From: Haliotis rufescens
Lineage: Eukaryota
Length of the DNA: 64,000 nucleotides
NCBI RefSeq assembly: GCF_023055435.1
Contig: NW_025963891.1
Coordinates: 11,780,001 to 11,844,000, forward strand
Reading direction: 5' to 3'
Part shown: piece after piece, positions 5,961-63,625 of the stretch
Numbering within the stretch: position 1 is the stretch's first letter
Layout of the letters: the number at the start of each line of letters is the position of its first letter
The notes under the pieces: model-generated
What the model was told of the DNA's origin: nothing
Database searches by the model: none
Seen by the model: only the letters and a program-made list of their open reading frames with translations
Program-made: the position numbers and the translations under genes

Positions 5961-6206
5961 ACCCGTGAAGATCCGGTAAGAATAGGTCTACAGCAAGCCA
6001 TGATTGCGGTTGGAGGCGATTATGCTTGCTATGGGATCGGGTGGTCAGGCTTGGTGACTTCGTTCATGCATGTCATCGTATCCTAGTTGCGTACATCGAG
6101 GCTCATGGTGGCAATCACTGGAATCTCTGGTCCAGACTCGATTATTTTCAGACCGCTTTCATGTAGCTGGAATATTGCTAAATGCGGCGTTAAATACAAA
6201 CAAAAC
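5961..6206 (+). mobile_element. ~260-bp non-tRNA retroposon (family 2), diverged copy
   Basis: ACCCGTGAAGATCCGG head through GGAATATTGCT..GCGGCGTTAAA and an (ACAA)n tail; about 14 copies in the window. Confidence 0.85.
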
Positions 6207-14281: not shown

Positions 14282-14530
14282 GACCCGTGAAGATCCGGGG
14301 TAGAATAGGTTTTCAGCAACCGATAATTGCCGTAAAAGGCGACTATGCTTGTCGTAAGAGGTGACTAACGGGGTCGGGTGGTCAGGATCGCTGACTCGGT
14401 TGATGCATGTCATCGTATCCCAATTGCGTGGATCGATGCTCATGATGTCAATCACTGGATTGTCTGGACCAGACCCGATCATTTATAGACCGCCGTCATA
14501 TACCTGGAATGCGGCGTTAAACAACGAAAA
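14282..14530 (+). mobile_element. Family-2 non-tRNA retroposon, full length
   Basis: GACCCGTGAAGATCCGGGGTAGAATAGG head and GCGGCGTTAAACAAC tail. Confidence 0.9.
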
Positions 14531-28010: not shown

Positions 28011-29716
28011 TATAGCCGCGCATTGTGCACTTGGATGTATGCCATCTGTATCTGGACTGAGGCCTATAAATCAACTTTGAATTGACTTTGACTTAACTAT
28101 ATTGTGATTGTTGATTGCATTCATAAATTTGAGACTCAGCTCTCAAGACTGAAGGGAAACAATTAAAACATACGTAATTGAAGACAAAACAGCTCCTCAA
28201 TCGCTCATCCAATCACCGTCAAACTTTTGACTAAGGTCATAGGTCATGTAGTTTGGCAGCGAGTTTTGATTTAAGTTAACCAGTATGCTTTTTACGTTAT
28301 TTTGTGTATATTCTTCCACAATCTTTTCCTCCGAACGTACCTGTGGAACTTTATATAACTGTTCTATATATGGTCTCCAAACTGTGATCTGACATTGTTC
28401 GTAAATGTCACTTGGTGGCCGCCAAATTGCAATTTACATCGCAAAATTATTCTTAAAATTTGTTAAGACGGTTCTAAATTAAAACAGTGAAATATGGCGT
28501 TGATATATTAATTTCGAATTTTGAACATGTTTTATTCTTGGGTGCGTGTTAAAAGTAACGCCATTTGAAGGTTATATTTGAGTTTCAGTTGTTGTTTACA
28601 TAAAGTTAAGGAGACTGAACAAATCGAGAGAGAAATATACATTACGAATAACCCCTGTTCACTTCCTTTACATCCGTACTAGGGCCATGAACAATTTTGT
28701 GGCCATGGTCTTCTGTAGTAGATATAAAGGATTTTTAAAACTAGAAATGTTGTGTTTTTGCGATTTGTTCCGGGGTCGAAAACGTGTTTTTTACTCAAAT
28801 AGACAGTTTGTTTTTAACCCTCTAGGACTAAAGAGATAGTGGTACGATTTGGTCCATAGACAAGTTAATTCAAAACAACAGAGTTACCTTCCACGGCTAA
28901 AGCTTGTAGATATTGAAAGAAGTGATAGTAACATATGTGAAAACGTTTTTTTTAAATGCCGACTGCAAAAACAGTGAAGCATCAATCAAATATCAGAATT
29001 ATCCCAACTAACGAACATCGAAAGTGACGCAATGACCTTCGGAGGCGTTTTGTTTGAAAGTGTATAATAACTGTAAACGTATGTTTCTTGTTGCTGAAGT
29101 GACAGTTTAAACAATAATCGGAACTAAAATTTATTTTGTAACTTAGTCAGCCACGGAATTTAAGTCCTGCTGTCTATGCTGGGGTGATGGTTTCTGTTTG
29201 TTAGAGCTGTCGACAATGAGCATAAGTTACAGTGTTGAAGCTTCAAATAACAATCACCAAAGTATTTGCTTGACGCCAGTTCCTCCGTCGATGTAAAGGC
29301 AGTTTGTACGGATATATGTTTTTGAGTGAAATATGTGTAACTATAATATGTTAAAAATACCGTTCACAGCAATTTACGGTCTTTTCGGAAGATCGGGAGC
29401 ACAACAAAGAAGCCTGAATAAAAAAAGTGAAATATCCCCACTATTTTAATTTGCTAATGTAGAAGTGACCATTTATGGCATAACGTTAATTACAAGTCAC
29501 TGTTTATGCTATTCAGCTGGGGTCACGGAATTTTCAATGCTGCTGACTGTGTTTAAGGTATGTCTTTGATTTTTATGAAGTTCACAACTTCATAAGTGAT
29601 AAACTTAAAACCGTAAGTATTAAACATTTTGACAAATATTGAGCTGCATCACTGGGACTTTCAGTTAAAAATGTTTAAACAGTTAACCTTCTTGTGACAC
29701 GGGAAATGACATAATC

Positions 29717-29850
29717 GCTTTTAGCAATAGTCCAGCAATATCACGGCGGGGATTTCCATAAATGAGCTTCACACATTGTACCCATGTGGGGAATCGAACC
29801 TGGATCTTCGGCGTGACCAGCGAACGCTTTAACCACGAGGCTAGCTCACC
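29717..29850 (-). mobile_element. tRNA-derived SINE (family 1)
   Basis: Reverse complement of the 37694 copy. Confidence 0.85.
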
Positions 29851-30352
29851 GCTCCCGTCGCTGTGACAACGGTGTTATCACAGTTGATATGTGTACTTGG
29901 GTAAACTGCACATATAGAAATACATCCTTCTGTATGTGCGTGTATGTTTGTATGTATGTGTGTGTGTATGTTTGTATGTATGTATGTGTGTGTGTGTGAT
30001 TGTGGTGTGTGTGTGCGCGCGTGTGTAAGGTAGCTTGCCATTAACTTGGTAGCTAATTACTGGGATATCACCTTTAAGCAGAGAGAAGGCTGCTGATCAT
30101 GAGTCCCTTGAAGTCTTTATTCGTGGCAGATTGTCAAATTACATATTTAGAGATAATTCACACAATATTAACTGTACAAAGTAGATACAGTAAATAACTT
30201 TAACAATAAAATACATGTGTACATTGACAACAGAGCAATATAACTACACACCAACTATATAAATAATAGTGATTTACCTAATTCAAGGTTCTATATATAA
30301 TATGTGTTTAGTAAATAGCACATTCAATAATACACCACTGTTTAGATGACAG

Positions 30353-37693: not shown

Positions 37694-37857
37694 GGGGCGG
37701 TCGGGTAGCCTAGTGGTTAAAGCGTTCGCTCGTTACGCCGAAGACCCGGGTTCGATTCCCGACATGGATACAATGTGTGAAGCCCATTTCTGGTGTCCCC
37801 CTCCCTGATATTGCTGGAATATTGCTAAAAGCGGCGTAGAGCCATACTCACTCACTC
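37694..37857 (+). mobile_element. tRNA-derived SINE (family 1), full length
   Basis: TAGCCTAGTGG A-box, GGTTCGATTCC B-box, (ACTC)n tail. Confidence 0.92.
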
Positions 37858-39252
37858 ATTTAGAGCTGAATAGTCCGTTTCATTATAGAATGAGACACTC
37901 CTCTGACAGATCCTCATATGTTTTCATAATGCATCTAGATGAAGCTGTCCTAATAACATTTCTTGGTACAATTATTCCAGGTGTAATCACTTTAATCAAA
38001 TATCGGTAAGTGAATGAGTTATATACAGTTTGGAGGCTATTCCGTTGAATATTACAAGCTTCTTAAACAGTTGATCATTGCAGAAACTTTGCCAATAATA
38101 CTATTGTTATGCACCTGCCACTGACCATCATGTAGAATTAGTCCAAGATGTTTGTGAATAGATCCGTCATTGTACTTGCTGTTAACTTCCTTGAAAATAA
38201 ACTTCATTATTTTCATCGTCTTATTAGGAAAAACATTAAAAGTTCCAAGTTTTTGCTCATTTTGCTATCAATTCTAAATCAGTATTTAAAGATGTTGTTG
38301 ATAAGTCAGGGTAATCAATAATTACATATAGAGATGTATCGTCAGTCAATTATTTGATGTTGCACTAAATAGTATTTACTATATCATTAATGAATACCAA
38401 AAATAATAATGGCCCTAAGACCGAACTGTGTGGGAATCCTGTGTTTACTGGCTTTATATTGAATTTAAAGCCATTTATAACAGTCAGCTGTTTTATGTTC
38501 GTTAAAAACTTTCAAACCATTTCAAGAGGGAACCATGCATCCCACTATGACGCAATTTACATAAAAGACACTTCTGCCAAACTGGGTGGAATGCTTTACG
38601 TATGTCACAAAATACAGCTCTTACTTCTTCACCATCGTCCTTTGCCTCAGCTATAAAATTATAACTGTAAAGAAGTAATTGGTATATCATCTAAGAAAAG
38701 AAATGACACATGTTTAAACATGCATTGCTCAAACTCTTTTCACAAACAACTTGTAAGGGAGACAGGTAAATAATTAGAAACATCATGAACAGTCTTCTCT
38801 GTATGTACTGGAACCACTGGGGAACATTTCTATATATCTGGAAAATGCGAAGTTGATTAAGAAGAATTAAAGAAATTATATAAATGAACTAATAATTGTT
38901 CTGATAAATACCTTTGAACACGATTACTAATGTTATCTATCCCTGTTGCTTTGGAAATATTGAGAGATAATAAAATTTTCCATACTTCAGATTTGTGGAA
39001 GCTTATACTTTGAAGGCAATAGTCAACGTTTTCAAATGTATCATCATCTGGAATTTCATCATTGGGATTATCAACAGTTGCAATGCCTACAAAGTAGTTT
39101 TTGAATATATTTGCTTTATCAATATCATCTTTTTACCCAACATCATTTTCTTCTATGTGAAAAAAAAATGTTTTCGTTCTATTGTCTGTTGACGATAATA
39201 CTTCTTAATACGCCACCGTGATTTGCCTCATACCAAAATACGTTGAAAGATG

Positions 39253-40379: not shown

Positions 40380-41350
40380 AAGCCATATTTTGTCTGTTAA
40401 GGTTTGTTAAACGTTATAAGCTCAATGTAAATACATCAATGTTGTTCTTCGACAGAGTAGTCGGTAGCCTGGTGGTTATAGCGTTCGCTCGTCACGCCGA
40501 AGACCCGGGTTCGATTCCGGACATGGGTACAATGTGTGAAGCCTATTTCTGGTGTCCCCCGCCGTGATATTGCTGGAATATTGCTAAAAGCGGCGTAAAA
40601 CCATACTCACTCACTTCGACAGAATAATCGCACCAATCTTAATCTATGCCTCTGAAGTTTGGGGATCTCAACACTTAACGTGTTTTGAAAGGGTACAGAT
40701 ATATTTTTGTAAATAAATTTTAGGCTTGACGCTGCACTCGGTGAATAGGCAAGGTATCCGTAACATCTACTGTATGTTATGAAATGTATATTCTACTGGA
40801 TAAAATTATTGTCCATGCTATAGGAACCCCAGGATTTGTTATAATATGTTGTTTTCACTGGATAATGACGGAAGGCAAATATGGGTTGGATTTGTTAGGA
40901 ATATTTTGTTTAAACAAGGGTATGGATTAGTTTGGTTAAACCGAGGTGTGGAAGCCCGCAATATTTCTTTTTCTCAAAGATTGAAAGTTGTATCACGTCA
41001 AATTTAAGATTTTGGAAACAGTGTAAATATATGCTACAAACAGAACAGTATCTAATGAATAATACGAGCATAAGTAAATTCCGTTGTGGAAATCACAATT
41101 TACGTATTTGAGTCTGGACGATGGGAAAATATTTTGTACGAAGATTGATTATGATTATATTGTAAACATGTTTGTTAAAAGAAAGTAATCGAAAATGAAG
41201 AATTTTTTTCTGTTGATCTGTGCTTTGTATATATATGAGAATCTGAGTGGTAAGTATTTTTTGCGTTGTGAATTTTAACGTTATCAGTATCATGAAACTT
41301 TGTGACAACCAACATGCATTTAAACTAGGTGCATACATATTTTATGATTT
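40380..41350 (+). mobile_element. Highly degenerate LINE RT/C-terminal fragment
   Basis: IIAPILIYASEVWG and SKFRCGNHNL remnants are homologous to the 1363 ORF; interrupted by a SINE. Confidence 0.6.
40457..40614 (+). mobile_element. tRNA-derived SINE (family 1) with TSD
   Basis: Direct repeat TTCGACAGA on both sides. Confidence 0.92.
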
Positions 41351-43410: not shown

Positions 43411-43600
43411 CCCGTGAAGATCTGGGGTACAATATGTCTTCAGCAACCCATACTTGCCGTGAAAGGCGAGTTTGCTTGTCGTAAGAGGCGGGATTGGGTC
43501 ATCGTATCCCATTTGCGTGGATCGATGCTCCAGACTCGACTATTTACAGACCGCAGTCATATAGCTGGAATATTGCTGAGTGCGAAGTTAATAAACATGA
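43411..43600 (+). mobile_element. Family-2 retroposon, internally deleted
   Basis: Head and tail match the family. Confidence 0.8.
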
Positions 43601-43684
43601 AACTGAAACAAATACGTAGATAATTTCCTGACGTTTGTTGTTAATCGGACAAAATCATCAGAGGGAGGCACGCTCTGTTTCATT

Positions 43685-46535: not shown

Positions 46536-46796
46536 GTTGGTTGGTTGGTTTGTTGTTTTACGCCGCACTCAGCAATATTGATTATTCCAGTTATATGAGG
46601 GCGGTCTGTAAATAATCAAGTCTGGGCCAGACAATCTAGTGATTAATATCATGAGCATCGATCCACGCAAATGGGGTCGATGACATGCTTCAACCAATTC
46701 AGCGTGCCTGATCACTCGATCCTGTTTGTCGCCTCTTACGACAAGCATAGTCGCCTTTTACGGCAAACATGGGTTGCTGAAGACCTATTCTAACCG
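46536..46796 (-). mobile_element. Family-2 retroposon with TSD CGGGGTTAGG
   Basis: Family match and a direct repeat on both flanks. Confidence 0.88.
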
Positions 46797-47324
46797 CGGG
46801 TTAGGCAATTGCATCTGACCACAAACATTTTCTTCAGGATTTCTCCTTGCTGTCATTGTTATTGTTCTAACTTGCTCAAAAGTTAACTTACTAAGGGTTT
46901 TCTTTTTATGGCAATACAATGTCTTCACCAGATCCTGTTACAAAATTCAGTTGAAACTTTCCAGCTTGGTCTTGGCGTCCCACTGGCTTTCTAAACCTTT
47001 CTGTTCCTAATAACGTCTCTAGCAGTTTGTCATTGGATATGCCATAGAATTGTGGAACAAAATCATTTCCACCGCAACAGAGCATTACTGCAATTTTCAT
47101 TCCAACGTGTCTGTCATTGTATGTCTTCTCCAAGATTTTTAACATTACAGTAATGTTAATGTCATAGATGCGATTTTGATTTTGAAGAATGACATAGACA
47201 GTATTTTTGAAAAGGTTGTTTTCCAAACGAGGCCAATAGAGGGAAACAGCAAAAGGTGCATGTGGATGGGCACTGCATCGATGTCTCCAGATTTTACGAA
47301 ACGGGCAACTGCATCTAAGACTGT

Positions 47325-47593
47325 TTTGTTTGTTTGTTTATTGTTTAACGCCGCACTCAGCAATATTCCAGCTATATGACGGCGGTCTGTAACTAATCGA
47401 GTCTGGACCAGACAATCCAGTGATTAATATCATGAGCATCGATCCACGCAATTGGGATCGATGACATGCATCAACCAAGTCAGCGAGCCTGACCACCCGA
47501 TCCCGTTAGTCGCCTTTTACGACAAGCATAGTCGCCTTTTACGGCAAGCATGGGTTGCTGAAGACCTATTCTACCCCGGAATCTTCACGGGTC
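47325..47593 (-). mobile_element. Family-2 retroposon, full length, 11-bp TSD
   Basis: TCTAAGACTGT at 47314-47324 and 47594-47604. Confidence 0.93.
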
Positions 47594-49371
47594 TCTAAGA
47601 CTGTGATTCACCTGATAGTTCAGTAGCTAGTCAACCTGCGTCTTTGCTGCTTCCCCGTTTCTTTGACGGATACCGATTTGTCTGGTAATGTGAGGAGTGT
47701 CTTTGTCATTCCGAAATTGTCACCATATGGGGGTGGAATGAGTAACACAAGAACATGCTCCAGAAAAAGGACACTTGGACATGTGAAGCTCACTGTCAAT
47801 GTCAACTACAATTAATATTTGCTCCTAGTTGTATTAGCTTAACATTGTCAATCCTTTGCTTATCCACCACTGTGGTACTGAATAGATTGTCTTTACAACT
47901 GAAGTTCTTGACAAGAAATTCTCCAACACATCAAGTATGTCCGATGAGAGTGCTGTTTTGGGATTCGTGTAGGCATTGAAAGGAACAATAGACCATCCAA
48001 AGAAAGTGAACCACAGCGCAAAATAACATCTGTTACAGGTATAATATGCATAATGAATCTGAATCTCTTTTTGATCCATGTCCTGACTTTGTTGTTGACG
48101 TCTTTTCTGTCCATCCTCATGTGTCTGATTGAAGGAATCAGTCAATGCCATTCGGCGAGAGGCCGACTCTATGCTGGATCCAGCTGCCAACCCCTTGATT
48201 TCATCTTTGTGGTCCATTTCACAGGCAAAGTTGACATTACATGTTCCAACTGAAGATGTTTCCTTCATTCTCTGATAAAATGGACCAGCATTGTAATGCT
48301 CTGCAAGCAGTCTTGTGCAGAATGGTGCATACGAGCTGGCTCCATTGATAAATGAAACGACAAGTGATGATTTCACTGCAGCTAAGAGGAGGTCACATCA
48401 ATTCGTTCCACCAAACCGTTCTGATTGACAAACAGCAACAACTTCATGACAATGGGACATCATGTCATAGTGCAGAGAAAATGTTGCATTAGATGATTTT
48501 CTTCTTTGATGATTGAAGTGTCCTATGTTAATCGATAAATTGTAAATATTGTAAATTCTTATTATTGTTATTAATTACACGAACATAACATTCATATTCA
48601 ATATGCTATTGTATTATATCATCATTGTAAATATAATTCATAACTATTGTCTATTTTACTGTAAAAACATTAATATGTCATTGTAAATATTTATCGTTTG
48701 GTATGACTTTCTACAGATTTCGTTCTGTGTATGAATTCGTCATTATGATTTAACAGTTCTTTTACATTTCAGTTGATTGATAACTACATTTTCCTTATGT
48801 ATCTACCTCATTTATCGCTCAGTTCTTACCTTTATTTACAGTTCAGTTTTCTGTAGAATGTATCTTCTTTGCTGTGTTCCATTTCCCGCCATTTTACTCA
48901 CAGTCTGAGTTGACTTTTAGTTTCGTATCTCGCATTTAGGTTATTCAGTAACTTCAACCCAATTTATTATCGTCTTAATATTGGTTTTAATTATTCTTTT
49001 AGAGACTTAGTTCAATTAGGCTTGTATTGCTTTATATTTTGCTATATTTATTGTACCTTGTTTCGAATGAGTTCGTTGATGACGTCACTCATCAAAGGTG
49101 ACAGTTGTAATCAGTTGAAGATTTGTTTTTCATCACGATCAGACGTTGATTTTACGGCTTCAGACACTTACTTATATTTTAGTTTAATTCAAATATGACT
49201 CCCTGTGATTGAGACATGATGTAAGAAAATGAATTGACCCAGTTGAATAAAGTCATACGCTAAGCTCCTGAAGCACAAGCTGTTTATACAGACACACGCA
49301 GTCACAATCTCAAACGTGCTGGAAACCTGATAGCGTGTTTAAATTTAGTGTGGAACGTGGCCCCAGCTAAG

Positions 49372-49515
49372 ATGGCGAACATTCAGTTGTATCACTTCCC
49401 GGGAAGCCCGGCATGTCGTTCTGTCCGCATGACAGCCAAGGCTCTTGGTGTACCTCTGGAATTGAAACAACTCAACTACCACAACAAAGACCATCTTAGC
49501 CCAGAGTTTACAAAG
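49372..49515 (+). CDS. Glutathione S-transferase 1 (Delta/Epsilon/Theta-like), exon 1
   Basis: MANIQLYHFPGSPACRSVRMTAKALGV...HLSPEFTK, then GTTAGT donor; catalytic Ser position present. Confidence 0.95.
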
Positions 49516-49733
49516 GTTAGTTCCCCACAGAGACCCGGGTTGGGTCCCCATCACCCCAGTGCTGGTCGTGAAAAGGAAACTATCAGATTGTGTGGCCACG
49601 CACTCAAAAGTATCAGTCAAGGCTAAAAAAGGACCAGATGACCAGGTGACATGCCTCGATGGCGGACACCGTTGTCCATACTATCAGTCCCTGGTTTTCT
49701 AGTCCAGGCCGTGATTACCTCAAAATATTACTG

Positions 49734-50008
49734 TTGTTGTTGTTGTTGTTGGTTTGTTGTTTAATGCCGCACTCTGCAATATTCCAGCTATATGACGGCG
49801 GTCTGTAAATAATCGAGTCTGGACCAGACAATCCAGTGATTGATATCATGAGCATCGATCCACGCAATTGGGACCGATGACATGCATCACCCAAGTCAGC
49901 GAGCCTGACCACCCGATCCCGTTAGCCGCCTTTTACGACAAGCATAGTCACCTTTTACGGCAAGCATTGGTTACTGAAGACCTATTCTACCCCGGAATCT
50001 TCACGGGT
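49734..50008 (-). mobile_element. Family-2 retroposon, full length, 13-bp TSD
   Basis: CAAAATATTACTG at 49721-49733 and 50009-50021. Confidence 0.93.
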
Positions 50009-50211
50009 CAAAATATTACTGATTGCGGCTGTAACCAATATTCAGTTTATCACTTCAGTGACATATTGCGCCTCAACCGCTGAACTTACCAACTGCTATT
50101 GCTATATTTGCTTACTTAAGTTTCCTTTGCATGTCTTTGTGTCGAAGGCCACCGGAGGGGCAGGATACGCTCACCTTTTCGCCTACTCCAGGTATCATTG
50201 CTATTTGATAG

Positions 50212-50470
50212 TTTTGTTTGTTTATTTGTTGTTTGACGCCGCAGTCAGCACTATCACAGCTATATGGCGGCGGTTTGTAAATAATCTGAGTCTTGACCAG
50301 ACAATCCAGTGATTGACATCATGAACATCGATCCACGCAATTCGGATATGATGACATGCATCAACCAAGTCAGCGAGTCTGACCACTCGATCCCGTCAGT
50401 CGCCTCTTACGACAAGCATAGTCGCCTAATACGATAAGCATGGATTGCCGAAGACCTATTCTGCCCCGGT
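50212..50470 (-). mobile_element. Family-2 retroposon
   Basis: Family match. Confidence 0.88.
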
Positions 50471-56725: not shown

Positions 56726-57897
56726 GTGAGTACCCCACAGACACCCGGATTAGAATAGGTCCCCTGTACCCGTCTGCTGGTCGTTAGAAAAAACTAAATG
56801 GGATGGGGCGGTCACGCTCTCAATCAAATTATCAGTCCTTGTTCGTAACAGTCTTGGGAATCATTCATGCCATACAGTCCCTTTCCTTGCATTGTCACAC
56901 TACATGTATTCCAAGGAAGAACGGGTCCCCAATGTACCATGACGTACTGACACAGGACCAAGTGGCCAGATGTCATGCCCCGATGGCGTCAATCGTTCAT
57001 GTTTTCAGTCGCTGGTTTGTCTGACCATCCCGTGATACAGCTGAAATGATACTGCGGCGGTAGACAACATTACCTTTTTTACTTCAGTCACACCGATGAG
57101 TGTAAACTGATCTAACCCTATAGGAATATATTGCGAGAGAAGCTGCTGAAAATACCTTACTGAACTTTCTTATTCAAGAAGTTCTATTAAGCATGCATCT
57201 ATAGAATGGGTCTGCTACTAACACGCCCCATCACTACGCCTTCCTCAAATTAAATATATTTTGCATGGAGCATAAAATACGTTGATAAAGTGAAAATTTT
57301 CTGTCCTGGTATCATCACGATTTGATAAAAAACCCAAAACAACCCACATGCTTATGATAAAGTCGGAATCGTACGTACACAATCGCTTTTGGTAGAGATT
57401 TCTAATGAGTATTGAAAGGCTTTTATCGCTTGTATTAAGGTCCTGGGTGCAATTTGACATTTGCATGCATGTTAAATCTTGCGAATATCAGTTCGTCAAC
57501 AGTCATCGTGAACAGCATACTTCTTTTTCCAAAGAGGCAAAGGGAATATTCAATACTACTTGTGTACAGGTCTTGAAAATAGAATATGGATGGGGGACAG
57601 ATCTCGTCATTAGTGGAAACTTTCGTCAAACGAAATGTCTAAAGGAACTTTTCTATGTGAAGGACTTAGTCCCCCGTTGCCGTCACTCGATGTGGATATC
57701 TATAGAGATGATGCAATAATGTGATATTTGTGGACTTGATGACATCTGGCACATAAGCAAACATTCATCCTGTTTGCACTACCATATTTGTAAAACAAGA
57801 CCAGTAATACTTTTACATGACCTCTAAGTAAATTAATTCGTGATTATAATTACCCACATGCGTAAAAGTCTGAATGTGAATAAGGTTTTAAGTTTGG

Positions 57898-58050
57898 ATG
57901 AGTGAGTGAGTTTCATTTTACGCGCTTTTAGCAATATTCCAGCAATATCACGGCGGGGATCACCAGAAATTGGCTTTACACATTGTACCCAGGTCGGGAA
58001 TCGAACCCGGGTCTTCGGCGTGAAGAGTGAACGCTTTAATTACTGGGCGA
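57898..58050 (-). mobile_element. tRNA-derived SINE (family 1)
   Basis: Reverse-complement family match. Confidence 0.87.
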
Positions 58051-59139
58051 GTATCAATGGACTATTTTGTAAAACCAATAAAACTTCGTCAACTCGAACT
58101 CTATGCTCTGGGAATACGTATGAAGACGATGTTTGTGATGACCTCGGGACGCTTATCATTGGCAGAAAGTCTACTGGCGGCACCCTGTTAGTCTCCAACT
58201 ATTGGTAACACGTTTAACACACGCCCCAGGCGGGGCATTCGAACTGACGCCCCACGTTCCACTGCAATTCGAAATCATCCTACCATTCAATCAGTATGTC
58301 GACTGCAATTAAAGATTTGATCGTCATTTTATATATCTTTGAACATGGTCTTTTACAGGATATATTCCAGGGTAATGACACATATAGAGGTGTTGCGACA
58401 GCGAAGTCGAATACTGTCGAGTCACACGTTGACTTTTTTGTGGCAAATAGCAACGGTAGCGATAACCCAGATATTGGGTCGGGGGTGAGTTTAGTCTTGT
58501 CCTTGCTTACATAAAACTGTGAAAAGATAACGGGTTTGACACATAACAACCGTGCTAACCTCCCGTAGCCCCTTTGTCAGCACTCGGTGGACTTTGATAC
58601 ACGTTCTTGTTAGGTTATAGCTTAAGACTATGCTTGTGATGTATGATCTGTATTTCATATTGTATTCAATAACTGCACGAGGGTAGAAGCATCTAGCATC
58701 AGTAACAGTCAAAATAACTGTCCTTGTTATCAACGGCAGTGAAACCATTCATGTCACACCACAGTAATGTTCACACATACATAGGTAAAATGCTATCTGC
58801 AGTAACGAACTTTCAAAGGATTGTGACCTGGCAACACGATAATAGTAATCAACAAGTTGATGATTAGGCCGCAGTCAATACGAAAGCTTGTAAATACTCT
58901 ACTCCTCGACAGGCAAACCAGAGGCTAACAGCATGAGCACGCTGTCCGCATATGATGACAGACACAAACGCCATATCATTCATTGTCACCATCTAGTCAT
59001 CAGTTTAGTTGGCTATAAGGACGTGTATGGCTAGATTGGGACCTATTCTGACTAGATTCCTTACTGGGTCGGTATTCATTCAACTCTCCTATACAGTGTG
59101 TCCAGTAGTACATTTCCAAATTATCTTACATTGTAAATG

Positions 59140-59370
59140 GGTAGAGTAGGTCTTCAGCAACACATGCTTGCCGTAAAAGGGGACTAAAGGGGTCGGGTGG
59201 TCAGACTCGCTGACTTGGTTGATGCATGTCATCGTATCCCAATTGCATGGATCGATGTTCATGATGTGTCACTGGATTGTCTGGTCCAGACCGCCTTCAT
59301 ATAGGTGGAACATTGCTGAGTGCGGCGTTTAACAACAAATAAACAAATAAACAAACAAACAAACAAACAA
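59140..59370 (+). mobile_element. Family-2 retroposon
   Basis: Family match with (AAAC)n tail. Confidence 0.87.
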
Positions 59371-59597: not shown

Positions 59598-59743
59598 GGG
59601 GGCGGTCGGGTAGCCTAGTGGTTAAAGCGTTCGCTTCCCGACATGGGTACAATGTGTGATGCCCATTTCTGGTGTCCCCCGCCGTGATATTGCTGGAATA
59701 TTGCTAAAAGCGGCGTAAAACCATACTCACTCACTCACTCACT
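59598..59743 (+). mobile_element. tRNA-derived SINE (family 1), B-box deleted, TSD TAAATGTGG
   Basis: Family match and flanking direct repeat. Confidence 0.88.
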
Positions 59744-59858
59744 TAAATGTGGTTTTAACAAAGGGTTGAGCGTCCGTGTCCTGCGCCTCTTTAGGCTTTC
59801 CTCAACATTGAATGTGGCGTGCTGTGATGTAACCAAAATACTGTCATATTTATTTCAG

Positions 59859-60739: not shown

Positions 60740-61095
60740 CTACTTGGTTCATGCATGTCCCATTTGCGAAGATCGTTGCCCATGATGTCAATCAGAGAAT
60801 TGTCTGGTACAGACTAGGTTATTTAAAGACATCCGTCATGTAGCTGGAATATGTAGTGCAGCGACAACCAACAAGGTTTACAGCAACCCACGCTTGTCGT
60901 AAAATGCGAATATTCTTGTCGTAAGAGGAGACTAACAGGATCGGGTGGTCAGGCTCGCTGACTTAGTTGATGCATGTCATCGTATCCCAAATAGGTAGAT
61001 CGATGCTCATGATGTCTGTCCAGACTCGATTATTTGCAGACCGCCGCCATATAGCTGGAATATTGCTGAGTGCGGCGTTAAACAACAAACAGACA
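60740..61095 (+). mobile_element. Two adjacent truncated family-2 retroposons
   Basis: An old copy (60740-60875) followed by a younger copy (60880-61095). Confidence 0.8.
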
Positions 61096-61703
61096 GAAAA
61101 CCCAAAAAACTTTCGAGCCGTGTTTGTAAAATCATGGAATGCATGGGCAAAAGACAATTAGATTGATACTTGGAAAGCTATAACCTCAGTAGGATCACTA
61201 CAGTCTTCGTGTGTAGTACGGCACAATGTGTAGACCTAGACTTGTAAATGGACCTCCACGGTATCGGGGTCTTTATACTCAATGTACTTCTCCACATTCA
61301 TTCTGGAAAATTGGTCCCAGGGCTATGTGTGCGGGATCTCACAGTGTATCACATCGCTTACTAGCTGTTGGGACTTGGAAAGCAATAATCTAAGTAGTAA
61401 CACGGATACTCACTGTCTCTGTGTGAAGCGGAACAAAATGGAGTAGACATCTGTGTAGACATTCCACCTACACACCATCATCCTAGTGGACTTAGTGGCA
61501 CCCATGTACTCCATGTAGTTATATATATATAATAGGAATATTTGAATTACTGATAAAGACTCTTATTGTTAACAACAGAGACATCACCTGTTATTATATT
61601 TCCAACAGGGTGGTGGCACTACGATGAGTCTTGGAAGCCAAATGTAGTGCAAGTACACGTCCATGCATTCCACGTTCTGCAACATGTTCCCGTGAACAAC
61701 TTG

Positions 61704-61850
61704 GAGTGAGTGAGTGAGTGAGGTTATACGCCGCTTTTAGTAATATACCAGCAATATCACGGCGGGGGACACTTCAAATGGGCTTCACACATTGTACTCA
61801 TGTCGGGAATCTAACCAGGGTCTTCGGCGTGACGAGCTACGCGACCACCC
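61704..61850 (-). mobile_element. tRNA-derived SINE (family 1)
   Basis: Reverse-complement family match. Confidence 0.85.
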
Positions 61851-62277
61851 TGAACACCTTGGATGAATTGATGTTCGTATGGGAACTGTTAGTGCTTCCT
61901 GTTAGTGGTTCCTGAAATTTTATAAATTGTTGGGCATTTAGGGAAAATGATTTTTGTCTGAGATTGTTTGTGTGAGAAATTTACAGCATCGGTGTCCTTA
62001 TTGGCAAATTGCATATCTAGGTATCAGTGTATAATAGTCTTACGACTGCCACAGACTTGTTACGCAAATCATAGTTGGACAAAAGTGTATGGTGTATGGT
62101 ATTCAGGAGAGTCTCAAGGCCTCAAGGACGGTTTTTGAGTTGACCCTGTGGAAGAGGAGTTCTAACTCTGTGCAATGACTATTCTGCATTAATGAACTGC
62201 AGATGTGTCTTTTATTCCATTTTCATTATATTCGGTATGATGTTGTAACTAACCACTTGACGAAATTGTATCCTCAG

Positions 62278-63013: not shown

Positions 63014-63405
63014 GAAAATAACATAAAACATGAATATAAGCAAATCCATTTAAGTCTACTGCTTGAAACCAAAGAGACCCACAACAATAAGTCAGTAGGA
63101 GAGTTTAATATTATTATTATATATTTTCTGTATCTTCCCATCAGTATATATTTCAGAAACATTGTGAGATATCTGATATGCCGTGGAATATATTCAGTTT
63201 TACATTTTCAAGTCGACTATAAAATTATGAAACAAAAGGTAATGGCAACTGCATAGACTAAAAGCTTTATTGTTATTTGTCTTTTGTTGTGGTTTATGTT
63301 TTAAGGGATCCGCACTTGAGATACACCAGCCCCAATAATGGTCAACACGTGCCCGATAGGGTGCAAGTCGTTGATGGTACCGCTTCAGTGATTACATACA
63401 TGGCA

Positions 63406-63625
63406 CCCGTGAGAATTCCGGGGTAGAATAGGTCTTCAGCAACCCATGCATGCCGTAAAAGGCGACTATGCTTGTCTTAAAAGGCGACTAACGGGATCAG
63501 GTGGTCAGGCTCGCTGATTTGGTTGATGCATGTCATCGATCCCAAATGCGTGGATCGATGTTCCTGGTGTCAATCACTGGATTGTCTGGTCAGACTCGAT
63601 TATTTCCAGACCGCCGTCATATAAA
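63406..63625 (+). mobile_element. Family-2 retroposon
   Basis: Head ACCCGTGAGAATTCCGGGGTAGAATAGG; 3' tail lost. Confidence 0.87.

Follow-up and report, generated by a model that had tools for sequence, protein, structure and literature searches.

The head of an abundant abalone retroposon is apparently an unclassified functional RNA, whose function is predicted here from sequence comparison. In the 64,000-nt stretch of Haliotis rufescens DNA that was analysed (the window), a full-length copy of this element opens with a pseudoknot domain and a hairpin domain. The preliminary description had suspected a real, uncharacterised structured RNA at this place, which is borne out by a covarying fold that a covariance model recovers. 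We lean, with limited confidence, towards the view that this fold is exchanged among animal retrotransposons, RNA viruses and a large DNA virus, and would give SINEs a third route to a defined 5′ end besides a pol III promoter or a known ribozyme, either via exonuclease trimming or as a new ribozyme class. The SINE family is probably known; what appears to be new is the conserved RNA head, its covariation, its sharing with viruses and its position behind an HDV-like ribozyme. The element, its relatives and a second SINE lie in the window as follows:

47594..47604, no strand: target-site duplication, 5′ side, 11 bp, abutting the first base of the element (G1)
47325..47593, minus strand: full-length copy of the ~255-bp non-autonomous retroposon, likely of the Haliotis LP-SINE family, with G1 at 47593
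47502..47593, minus strand: structured RNA head, pseudoknot domain plus hairpin domain (match of covariance model R1 at 47517-47595, E 8.6e-11)
47386..47501, minus strand: body of unknown origin, with a chance-level B-box-like 9-mer
47339..47385, minus strand: LINE-related tail, common to the window's tRNA-headed SINE and resembling the 3′ end of the genome's I-group LINEs
47325..47345, minus strand: (ACAA)n terminal repeat
47314..47324, no strand: target-site duplication, 3′ side, 11 bp
49734..50009, minus strand: full-length retroposon copy with a 12-bp duplication
46537..46795, minus strand: copy without the first ~17 nt, 8-bp duplication
50213..50469, minus strand: copy without the first ~14 nt
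63405..63623, plus strand: copy with complete head, tail absent
14282..14524, plus strand: copy with complete head
5961..6204, plus strand: old copy (80% identity), 5′ end complete, 11-bp duplication
43411..43612, plus strand: old copy with an internal deletion, 5′ end complete
59139..59351, plus strand: 5′-truncated copy with a single hairpin
60874..61095, plus strand: 5′-truncated copy
37695-37860, 40500-40625, 59600-59745, 57890-58100, 61700-61900 and 29690-29900: tRNA-headed SINE with an (ACTC)n end

Much of what had been noticed about the element by inspection held up. Thirteen copies that retain 60 nt of body or more turn up when the window is searched by BLAST with the 47325..47593 copy, close to the 14 or so that had been counted; six window copies begin at positions 1-3, in line with the six said to have a common start, and the (ACAA)n tail is present on the query copy as described. 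Target-site duplications of 10-13 bp had been claimed for three copies, and they are exact at the 47325 copy (11 bp) and the 49734 copy (12 bp, 49722-49733/50010-50021), whereas at the 46536 copy the exact match is 8 bp. The reported lack of pol III A and B boxes was also confirmed: an A-box match is absent, the sole B-box-like 9-mer, at +150, is at chance level (expected in 6% of shuffles), and ARAGORN finds 0 tRNA genes in the retroposon. The A plus B boxes of a SINE with a tRNA or 5S head are thus missing here, unlike in the window's tRNA-headed SINE, which scores both. The element fits its earlier reading as a non-autonomous, LINE-dependent retroposon without a pol III head, having a LINE-derived 5′ end in its place. 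The tail of the tRNA-headed SINE, in turn, is of the type found on the LP element and on the LINEs. A body-only query found 90 copies in 600 kb taken from arbitrary places within the 1.33-Gb genome, which extrapolates to ~200,000 copies. The 5′ end is fixed to within a few bases: the start falls at positions 1-4 in 37 of 86 scored random genome copies, and a target-site duplication was identified for 12 of 35 full-length ones, seven of these duplications abutting G1 and five reading 1-4 bases into the retroposon.

The retroposon most likely belongs to the abalone LP-SINE family, as judged by length, layout and head homology rather than by letter-by-letter comparison, a kinship that the preliminary description did not recognise. 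The Haliotis LP-SINEs Hdi_LP and Hmi_LP are reported to have a 255-bp consensus, duplications and a non-tRNA head of ~70 bp (Matetovici et al. 2016, PMC4758252); the retroposon likewise combines a length of ~255 bp, variable target-site duplications and a terminal tandem repeat with a ~70-bp non-tRNA head homologous to LINE 5′ ends, 19 of 20 LINEs matching the model. A published Haliotis LP-SINE consensus sequence was not found in the searched part of the PMC4758252 supplement. According to the same paper, the LP head is common to the 5′ ends of Nimb and RTE LINEs, is carried at the 5′ end by three Repbase LINEs and was proposed to be a LINE-derived promoter, with L1Tc given as an analogy. Its figure S2 includes a scallop LP head whose hairpin has the identical sequence and in which, on inspection by eye, the pseudoknot recurs with different bases. 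The text consulted puts forward the promoter proposal without structure, covariation or viral occurrence. The bipartite LINE derivatives of Kojima 2018 (PMC5786205), as far as the consulted part of that paper describes them, also join a LINE 5′ part to a LINE-like tail and have no small-RNA head; in contrast to these, the head, body and tail of the retroposon are not traced to one identified LINE. Between the retroposon head and the genome's own LINEs, identity is ~80% over 50 nt only.

The fold begins with P1 (3-6 bp) and its 8-9 nt loop, continues through a linker of 0-17 nt or more and the AGAAU(A) motif to the pseudoknot strand, and ends in a P3 domain, in which P3 is followed by the GUCG/CGAC hairpin (P4) with a 7-nt loop, by UAA and by P3′. 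In the window copy these parts are, in 5′ to 3′ order of the RNA:

47588..47591, minus strand: P1 5′ strand (CCCG); the retroposon begins 2 nt before P1 and 6 nt before the loop
47580..47587, minus strand: P1 loop, which is the 5′ strand of the pseudoknot helix
47575..47578, minus strand: P1 3′ strand (CGGG)
47567..47572, minus strand: near-invariant AGAAUA linker, always directly 5′ of the pseudoknot 3′ strand
47559..47566, minus strand: pseudoknot 3′ strand
47552..47554, minus strand: P3 5′ strand (CCC), weak in the window copy, 4-6 bp in many relatives
47531..47545, minus strand: first, imperfect copy of the P4 hairpin, a lineage-specific duplication
47509..47523, minus strand: P4 hairpin GUCG/CGAC with a 7-nt purine-rich loop and an invariant stem
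47502..47504, minus strand: P3 3′ strand (GGG), after UAA

The CCCG/CGGG stem and the pairing of its loop had been seen before, and the pseudoknot is in fact longer than was stated, with eight pairs, six of them Watson-Crick. Other elements of the first reading needed revision. The tandem hairpin is present in the window copy but is lineage-specific, all 17 outside sequences having one hairpin, and six of 35 full-length genome copies are shorter. For the hairpin itself, GUCG/CGAC with a 7-nt loop fits better than the TTGYC/GGCGA originally drawn, whose outermost pair occurs in five of 18 sequences; once it is re-read in this way, the C of CUAA falls in a pair. The CGGG after CTAA can pair with the 5′ CCCG, as had been suggested, in three of 18 sequences including the window copy, but the segment just before the hairpin is the more frequent partner, the strand after CUAA forming at least four Watson-Crick pairs with it in eight of 18. 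The AGAAT linker is invariant in 17 of 17 outside sequences, most of which had been selected on linker or hairpin. A metagenome repeat family (L090, L108, L134, L142) has an insertion of 55-80 nt between P1 and the AGAAU linker with the pseudoknot strands kept, which indicates that the linker tolerates length. The minimum-energy fold of the head is a pseudoknot-free rod, which we rejected because it conflicts with the covariation.

Support for the fold comes from model R1, a covariance model for which 17 sequences from outside this genome were used and the pseudoknot pairs were left out. It finds the 47325..47593 copy at E 8.6e-11 (rough calibration) and seven further window sites at E < 0.01. 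Every pair of P1 and of P3 has two-sided changes in the model alignment of 28 rows; the P4 stem is invariant and so lends no covariation support. The pseudoknot has 69.7% of its cells paired in these 28 rows, which include two chance matches, against 54.6 +/- 2.4 when shuffled (0/500 as high), with 38 two-sided changes, and slid registers score lower (34-57%). In 18 independently parsed rows, one of which the automatic descriptor mis-parsed and which was kept in the count, 110 of 144 pairs form against a maximum of 104 in 100,000 permutations; for viral pseudoknots alone, where three of 16 rows of the test set were mis-parsed and likewise kept, 35 of 56 pairs are Watson-Crick against 22.9 expected (27/50,000 permutations). 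Relatedness is ignored by these permutation controls, though divergence among the viral rows is high. Several of the rows represent single, decayed copies, and the descriptor failed on or mis-parsed many decayed copies. That the pseudoknot pairs are absent from the model and yet covary argues that the constraint acts on the RNA.

Pattern searches extend the motif well beyond abalone. A 17-base hairpin pattern matches five viral contigs and at least 120 metagenome stretches, and the hairpin pattern together with the linker is found in three bacterial symbiont assemblies (L217, L218, L219/L339). All five viral hairpin matches have the upstream pseudoknot, even though the search used the hairpin only; loose viral patterns, which matched mostly by chance, serve as controls: a hairpin-only pattern gave 22 of 29 matches without a pseudoknot, a second loose pattern four of nine, and a pseudoknot-half pattern gave 0 of 80 matches below E 0.02. 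At gathering level Rfam reports tRNA only over the whole window, and with E up to 10 the head and five viral loci gave chance snoRNA and lncRNA matches and no ribozyme. The viral motif region has no match in a phage collection. Within the text of the open literature that was searched, we found no description of the head structure, its covariation, its viral presence or its position behind an HDV-like ribozyme; the structure is likewise not described in the parts of PMC11481361, 10.1101/2024.10.03.616574 and PMC4908430 that this search covered. One of the symbiont assemblies holds a complete two-ORF LINE, which is most likely host DNA, and a target-site duplication for the bivalve-type LINE in L339 was not found.

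The full motif occurs in eight viral contigs, seven of them distinct: four encode an RdRP, one has a tetravirus-type capsid only, one an S-domain coat without an RdRP match, and one is a 212-kb DNA virus. RdRP_3 was found in tombus-like contigs that bear the motif in the 3′ UTR. Throughout the six RNA-virus-like contigs it lies on the coding strand behind the final ORF, no more than ~120 nt from where the contig ends, the linker being 25-119 nt past the last stop in five distinct contigs and in the 3′ UTR of the sixth. Two viral contigs carry tandem copies, whose pseudoknot strands differ yet stay complementary. The first base of the viral motifs varies and no bases are conserved at their 5′ edge. 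Since RNA viruses have no DNA stage, their invariant bases are presumably kept for a function of the RNA. In the DNA virus the motif (L208:9980-10056) sits between genes, ~150 nt before a 1046-aa ORF, and in its pseudoknot strands it comes close to the abalone-type SINE. This copy had been suspected to be a published HDV-like ribozyme, and a literature search with a paper check found nothing of the kind.

A further setting is provided by LINEs of the genome. Using as query the endonuclease of a motif-headed LINE, we scored 113 relatives and took 20 that span different ORF2 lengths; 19 of these carry the motif upstream of ORF1, ~400-450 nt before it. Both ORF2s scanned have endonuclease, RT and RNase H domains, and with two ORFs, an AP endonuclease, RT, RNase H and a SINE-like tail these candidate partners have what an I-group LINE partner should have; the tail alignment shows similarity to the SINE tail. 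All 19 motif LINEs start 55 nt before the model start, at the G that opens a minimal HDV-like ribozyme, matched by RF02682 at E 0.0042, which is under the gathering score:

L253:2607-2663, with the same place in L249-L265 and L267-L298: HDV-like ribozyme of the I-group LINE (RF02682, E 0.0042)

Duplications of 12-14 bp flank 17 of the 19, and 15 end exactly at the HDV-like G. With a query downstream of the motif, 30 of 30 LINE copies, the best 30 of 1752 candidates and partly overlapping the set of 19, reach the same G (29 by script, one by eye), and no copy among the 19 and 30 examined starts at the motif. This young, abundant I-group superfamily thus opens with a minimal HDV-like ribozyme of ~57 nt, with duplications abutting its G1. 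The LINE motif-hairpin pattern has 839 exact matches. An 8-base word is common to the first 12 bases of the SINE (window 47582-47589) and to the HDV module of the LINE (L253:2613-2620); although it lies at a similar distance from the two 5′ ends, this may be chance.

Our best explanation of the head, held tentatively and with less than even confidence, is that it may be an xrRNA-like barrier to 5′-3′ exoribonucleases, of a new class. The retroposon would be transcribed inside host read-through transcripts, and decay of the Xrn1/Xrn2 type would shorten these as far as a point 6 nt ahead of the P1 loop. The reverse transcriptase of an I-group LINE would then capture the protected RNA via its tail and insert it through target-primed reverse transcription. 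A short 3′ RNA would be what the fold protects in viruses, and in HDV-headed LINEs it would serve as a second barrier. Four repeat families with different sequences all start exactly 6 nt before the loop, a fifth being less clear; this start is a distance set by the structure, and its first base is a purine in all four. Xrn1 needs a 5′ monophosphate and a 5′-OH ribozyme product is no Xrn substrate; that no examined copy of an HDV-headed LINE starts at the motif is what a barrier would predict. The viral 3′ UTR position is also that of the flavivirus and ST9a xrRNAs, as given in the consulted part of PMC11702639, and so fits a barrier, a single function that would explain where the SINE starts, where the motif sits in viruses and why tandem copies occur.

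The known structures to set beside it are the class 3 xrRNAs (ST9a, SCNMV, PLRV), which according to the sections of PMC11702639 available to us share a compact 5′ stem-loop whose loop enters a long pseudoknot with a downstream strand, a conserved AG-containing linker before the pseudoknot strand and a place in the 3′ UTRs of tombus-related viruses; the ST9a xrRNA works through a loop-to-3′ pseudoknot of 8-9 bp. The head has the apical loop paired with a 3′ strand, but the stacked P1/P2, the J1/2 bulge and the L2B hairpin in the loop are absent from it: compared with that description, P1 is a single helix of 3-6 bp without a P2, and the 8-9 nt loop is wholly used by the pseudoknot. It further differs in its extra conserved P3/P4 domain and its occurrence in host retroelements, and its resistance is a prediction.

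Several observations count against a barrier. The purine start and the viral variation are better accounted for by a start of transcription or by a preference in cleavage than by a stalled exonuclease, and a barrier role leaves the near-invariant hairpin domain unexplained. The motif stays intact in HDV-headed LINEs, which do not start there, so it must give them another benefit. Nor is a P1 of 3-5 bp within a simple H-type pseudoknot known to form a ring around a 5′ end. The purine start, the invariant hairpin and the retention in HDV-headed LINEs favour a role in factor binding or translation.

Such a role, which taken as a whole we regard as rather unlikely, would have the fold bind the ribosome or an initiation factor and enhance cap-independent translation, from the 3′ UTR in viruses and in LINE RNA that lacks a cap; the SINE would use it to stay near the nascent ORF2 protein, as Alu does through SRP9/14, and would owe its fixed 5′ end to an overlapping internal promoter. 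The tombus-like group is known for 3′ translation enhancers, and the 3′ UTR position in the tombus-like contigs agrees with this, as does the motif's retention in 19 of 20 LINEs, since HDV cleavage is predicted to leave their RNA without a cap. The invariant nucleotides of the loop hint at a conserved partner, a purine at +1 fits a transcription start, and promoter and ribozyme functions are both reported for the 77-nt L1Tc head (PMC3383444, in the part consulted). However, the 5′ end then calls for a second function, promoter boxes were not found, and translation as such would do nothing for a SINE that encodes no protein. The layout of the fold is also not known to match any 3′ enhancer class.

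The lead offered initially was a self-cleaving ribozyme with an HDV-like CNRA. As a new class, cutting 6 nt before the P1 loop and freeing the retroposon from read-through transcripts, it seems to us quite unlikely, and in its HDV-like form it is not supported: the nested double pseudoknot P1-P2-P3-P1.1-P4 of HDV cannot be fitted, as after P3a there is only a hairpin, with no P3, L3 or P1 3′ strand. The C of CUAA, the proposed catalytic base, is invariant, can pair with an invariant G in P4 and is followed by U or C (C in 32 of 55 LINE copies). The sharp 5′ end, with seven of 12 duplications abutting G1, the purine at +1 in four of four families and the many invariant nucleotides, as in catalytic cores, would suit a ribozyme. 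P1, the pseudoknot and the A-rich linker after P1 recall the 5′ half of pistol. A P1 loop that forms a pseudoknot is indeed common to both, but by comparison with the consulted part of the published description (PMC4604425) the head is not a pistol ribozyme. With the HDV-like ribozymes of R2, RTE and L1Tc (PMC6765202, in the part available) the head has in common a structured 5′ module at a fixed retroelement end; it differs in topology, and in LINEs a separate minimal HDV-like ribozyme precedes it. There, efficient self-cleavage at the 5′ side should leave LINE copies without their HDV module, and yet no examined copy starts at the motif, although the predicted cut site lies within the P2 helix of the HDV module and might be masked. 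Weak ribozymes do occur in linear RNA viruses, but those reported in the consulted part of PMC13725137 sit in 5′ UTRs or before ORFs, and a virus cut in its 3′ UTR would lose the end of its genome. The absence of conserved bases at the 5′ edge of the viral motifs and of any Rfam ribozyme match weighs in the same direction.

That the head is a DNA-level internal promoter from a LINE and nothing more, with the viral copies as inert captures, is very improbable: the purine start and the 5′-end position in SINEs and three Repbase LINEs (PMC4758252, in the part consulted) would agree with it, but RNA viruses without a DNA stage keep the invariant bases and show full compensatory change, which an internal promoter, the other option raised in the preliminary description, cannot explain alone, and the LINEs studied here start 55 nt upstream at the HDV-like G1, so that the viral covariation largely refutes a promoter as sole function.

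How SINEs without a pol III head obtain a fixed start is a question left open by the LP-SINE paper, and an ~80-nt covarying RNA, conserved from mollusc retroposons to RNA viruses, makes it directly testable. If the exonuclease block is true, the head would found a class of xrRNA of its own, which in the literature searched would be the first reported from mobile elements of a host; cleavage would make it a new ribozyme class; and recruitment of ribosomes would make it a translation element common to LINEs and viruses. Any of these outcomes would mean a new functional RNA family and point to the exchange of RNA modules between retroelements and viruses.

Some further observations concern the wider distribution of the motif. 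A decayed motif head (E 0.029) lies at window 56730-56808, plus strand, a few bases into the intron behind a GST N-terminal exon, and a paralogous GST exon at 49372-49515 has a similar intron start, by eye near 49530-49600, which suggests an old insertion that predates the gene duplication. The motif LINEs form clusters in which one has often inserted into a related copy, close to where ORF1 meets ORF2 (L255, L258, L260, L267). Small-RNA reads on the LINE head are mostly antisense and come from one run; 21 antisense reads of ~30 nt from a single run have a common start on the LINE motif (L253:2670-2699) and look piRNA-like. At the SINE head, reads from a related species are sparse (6, 61 and 4). 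Finally, short pieces of the SINE head make up a long satellite at L047:~950-2600.
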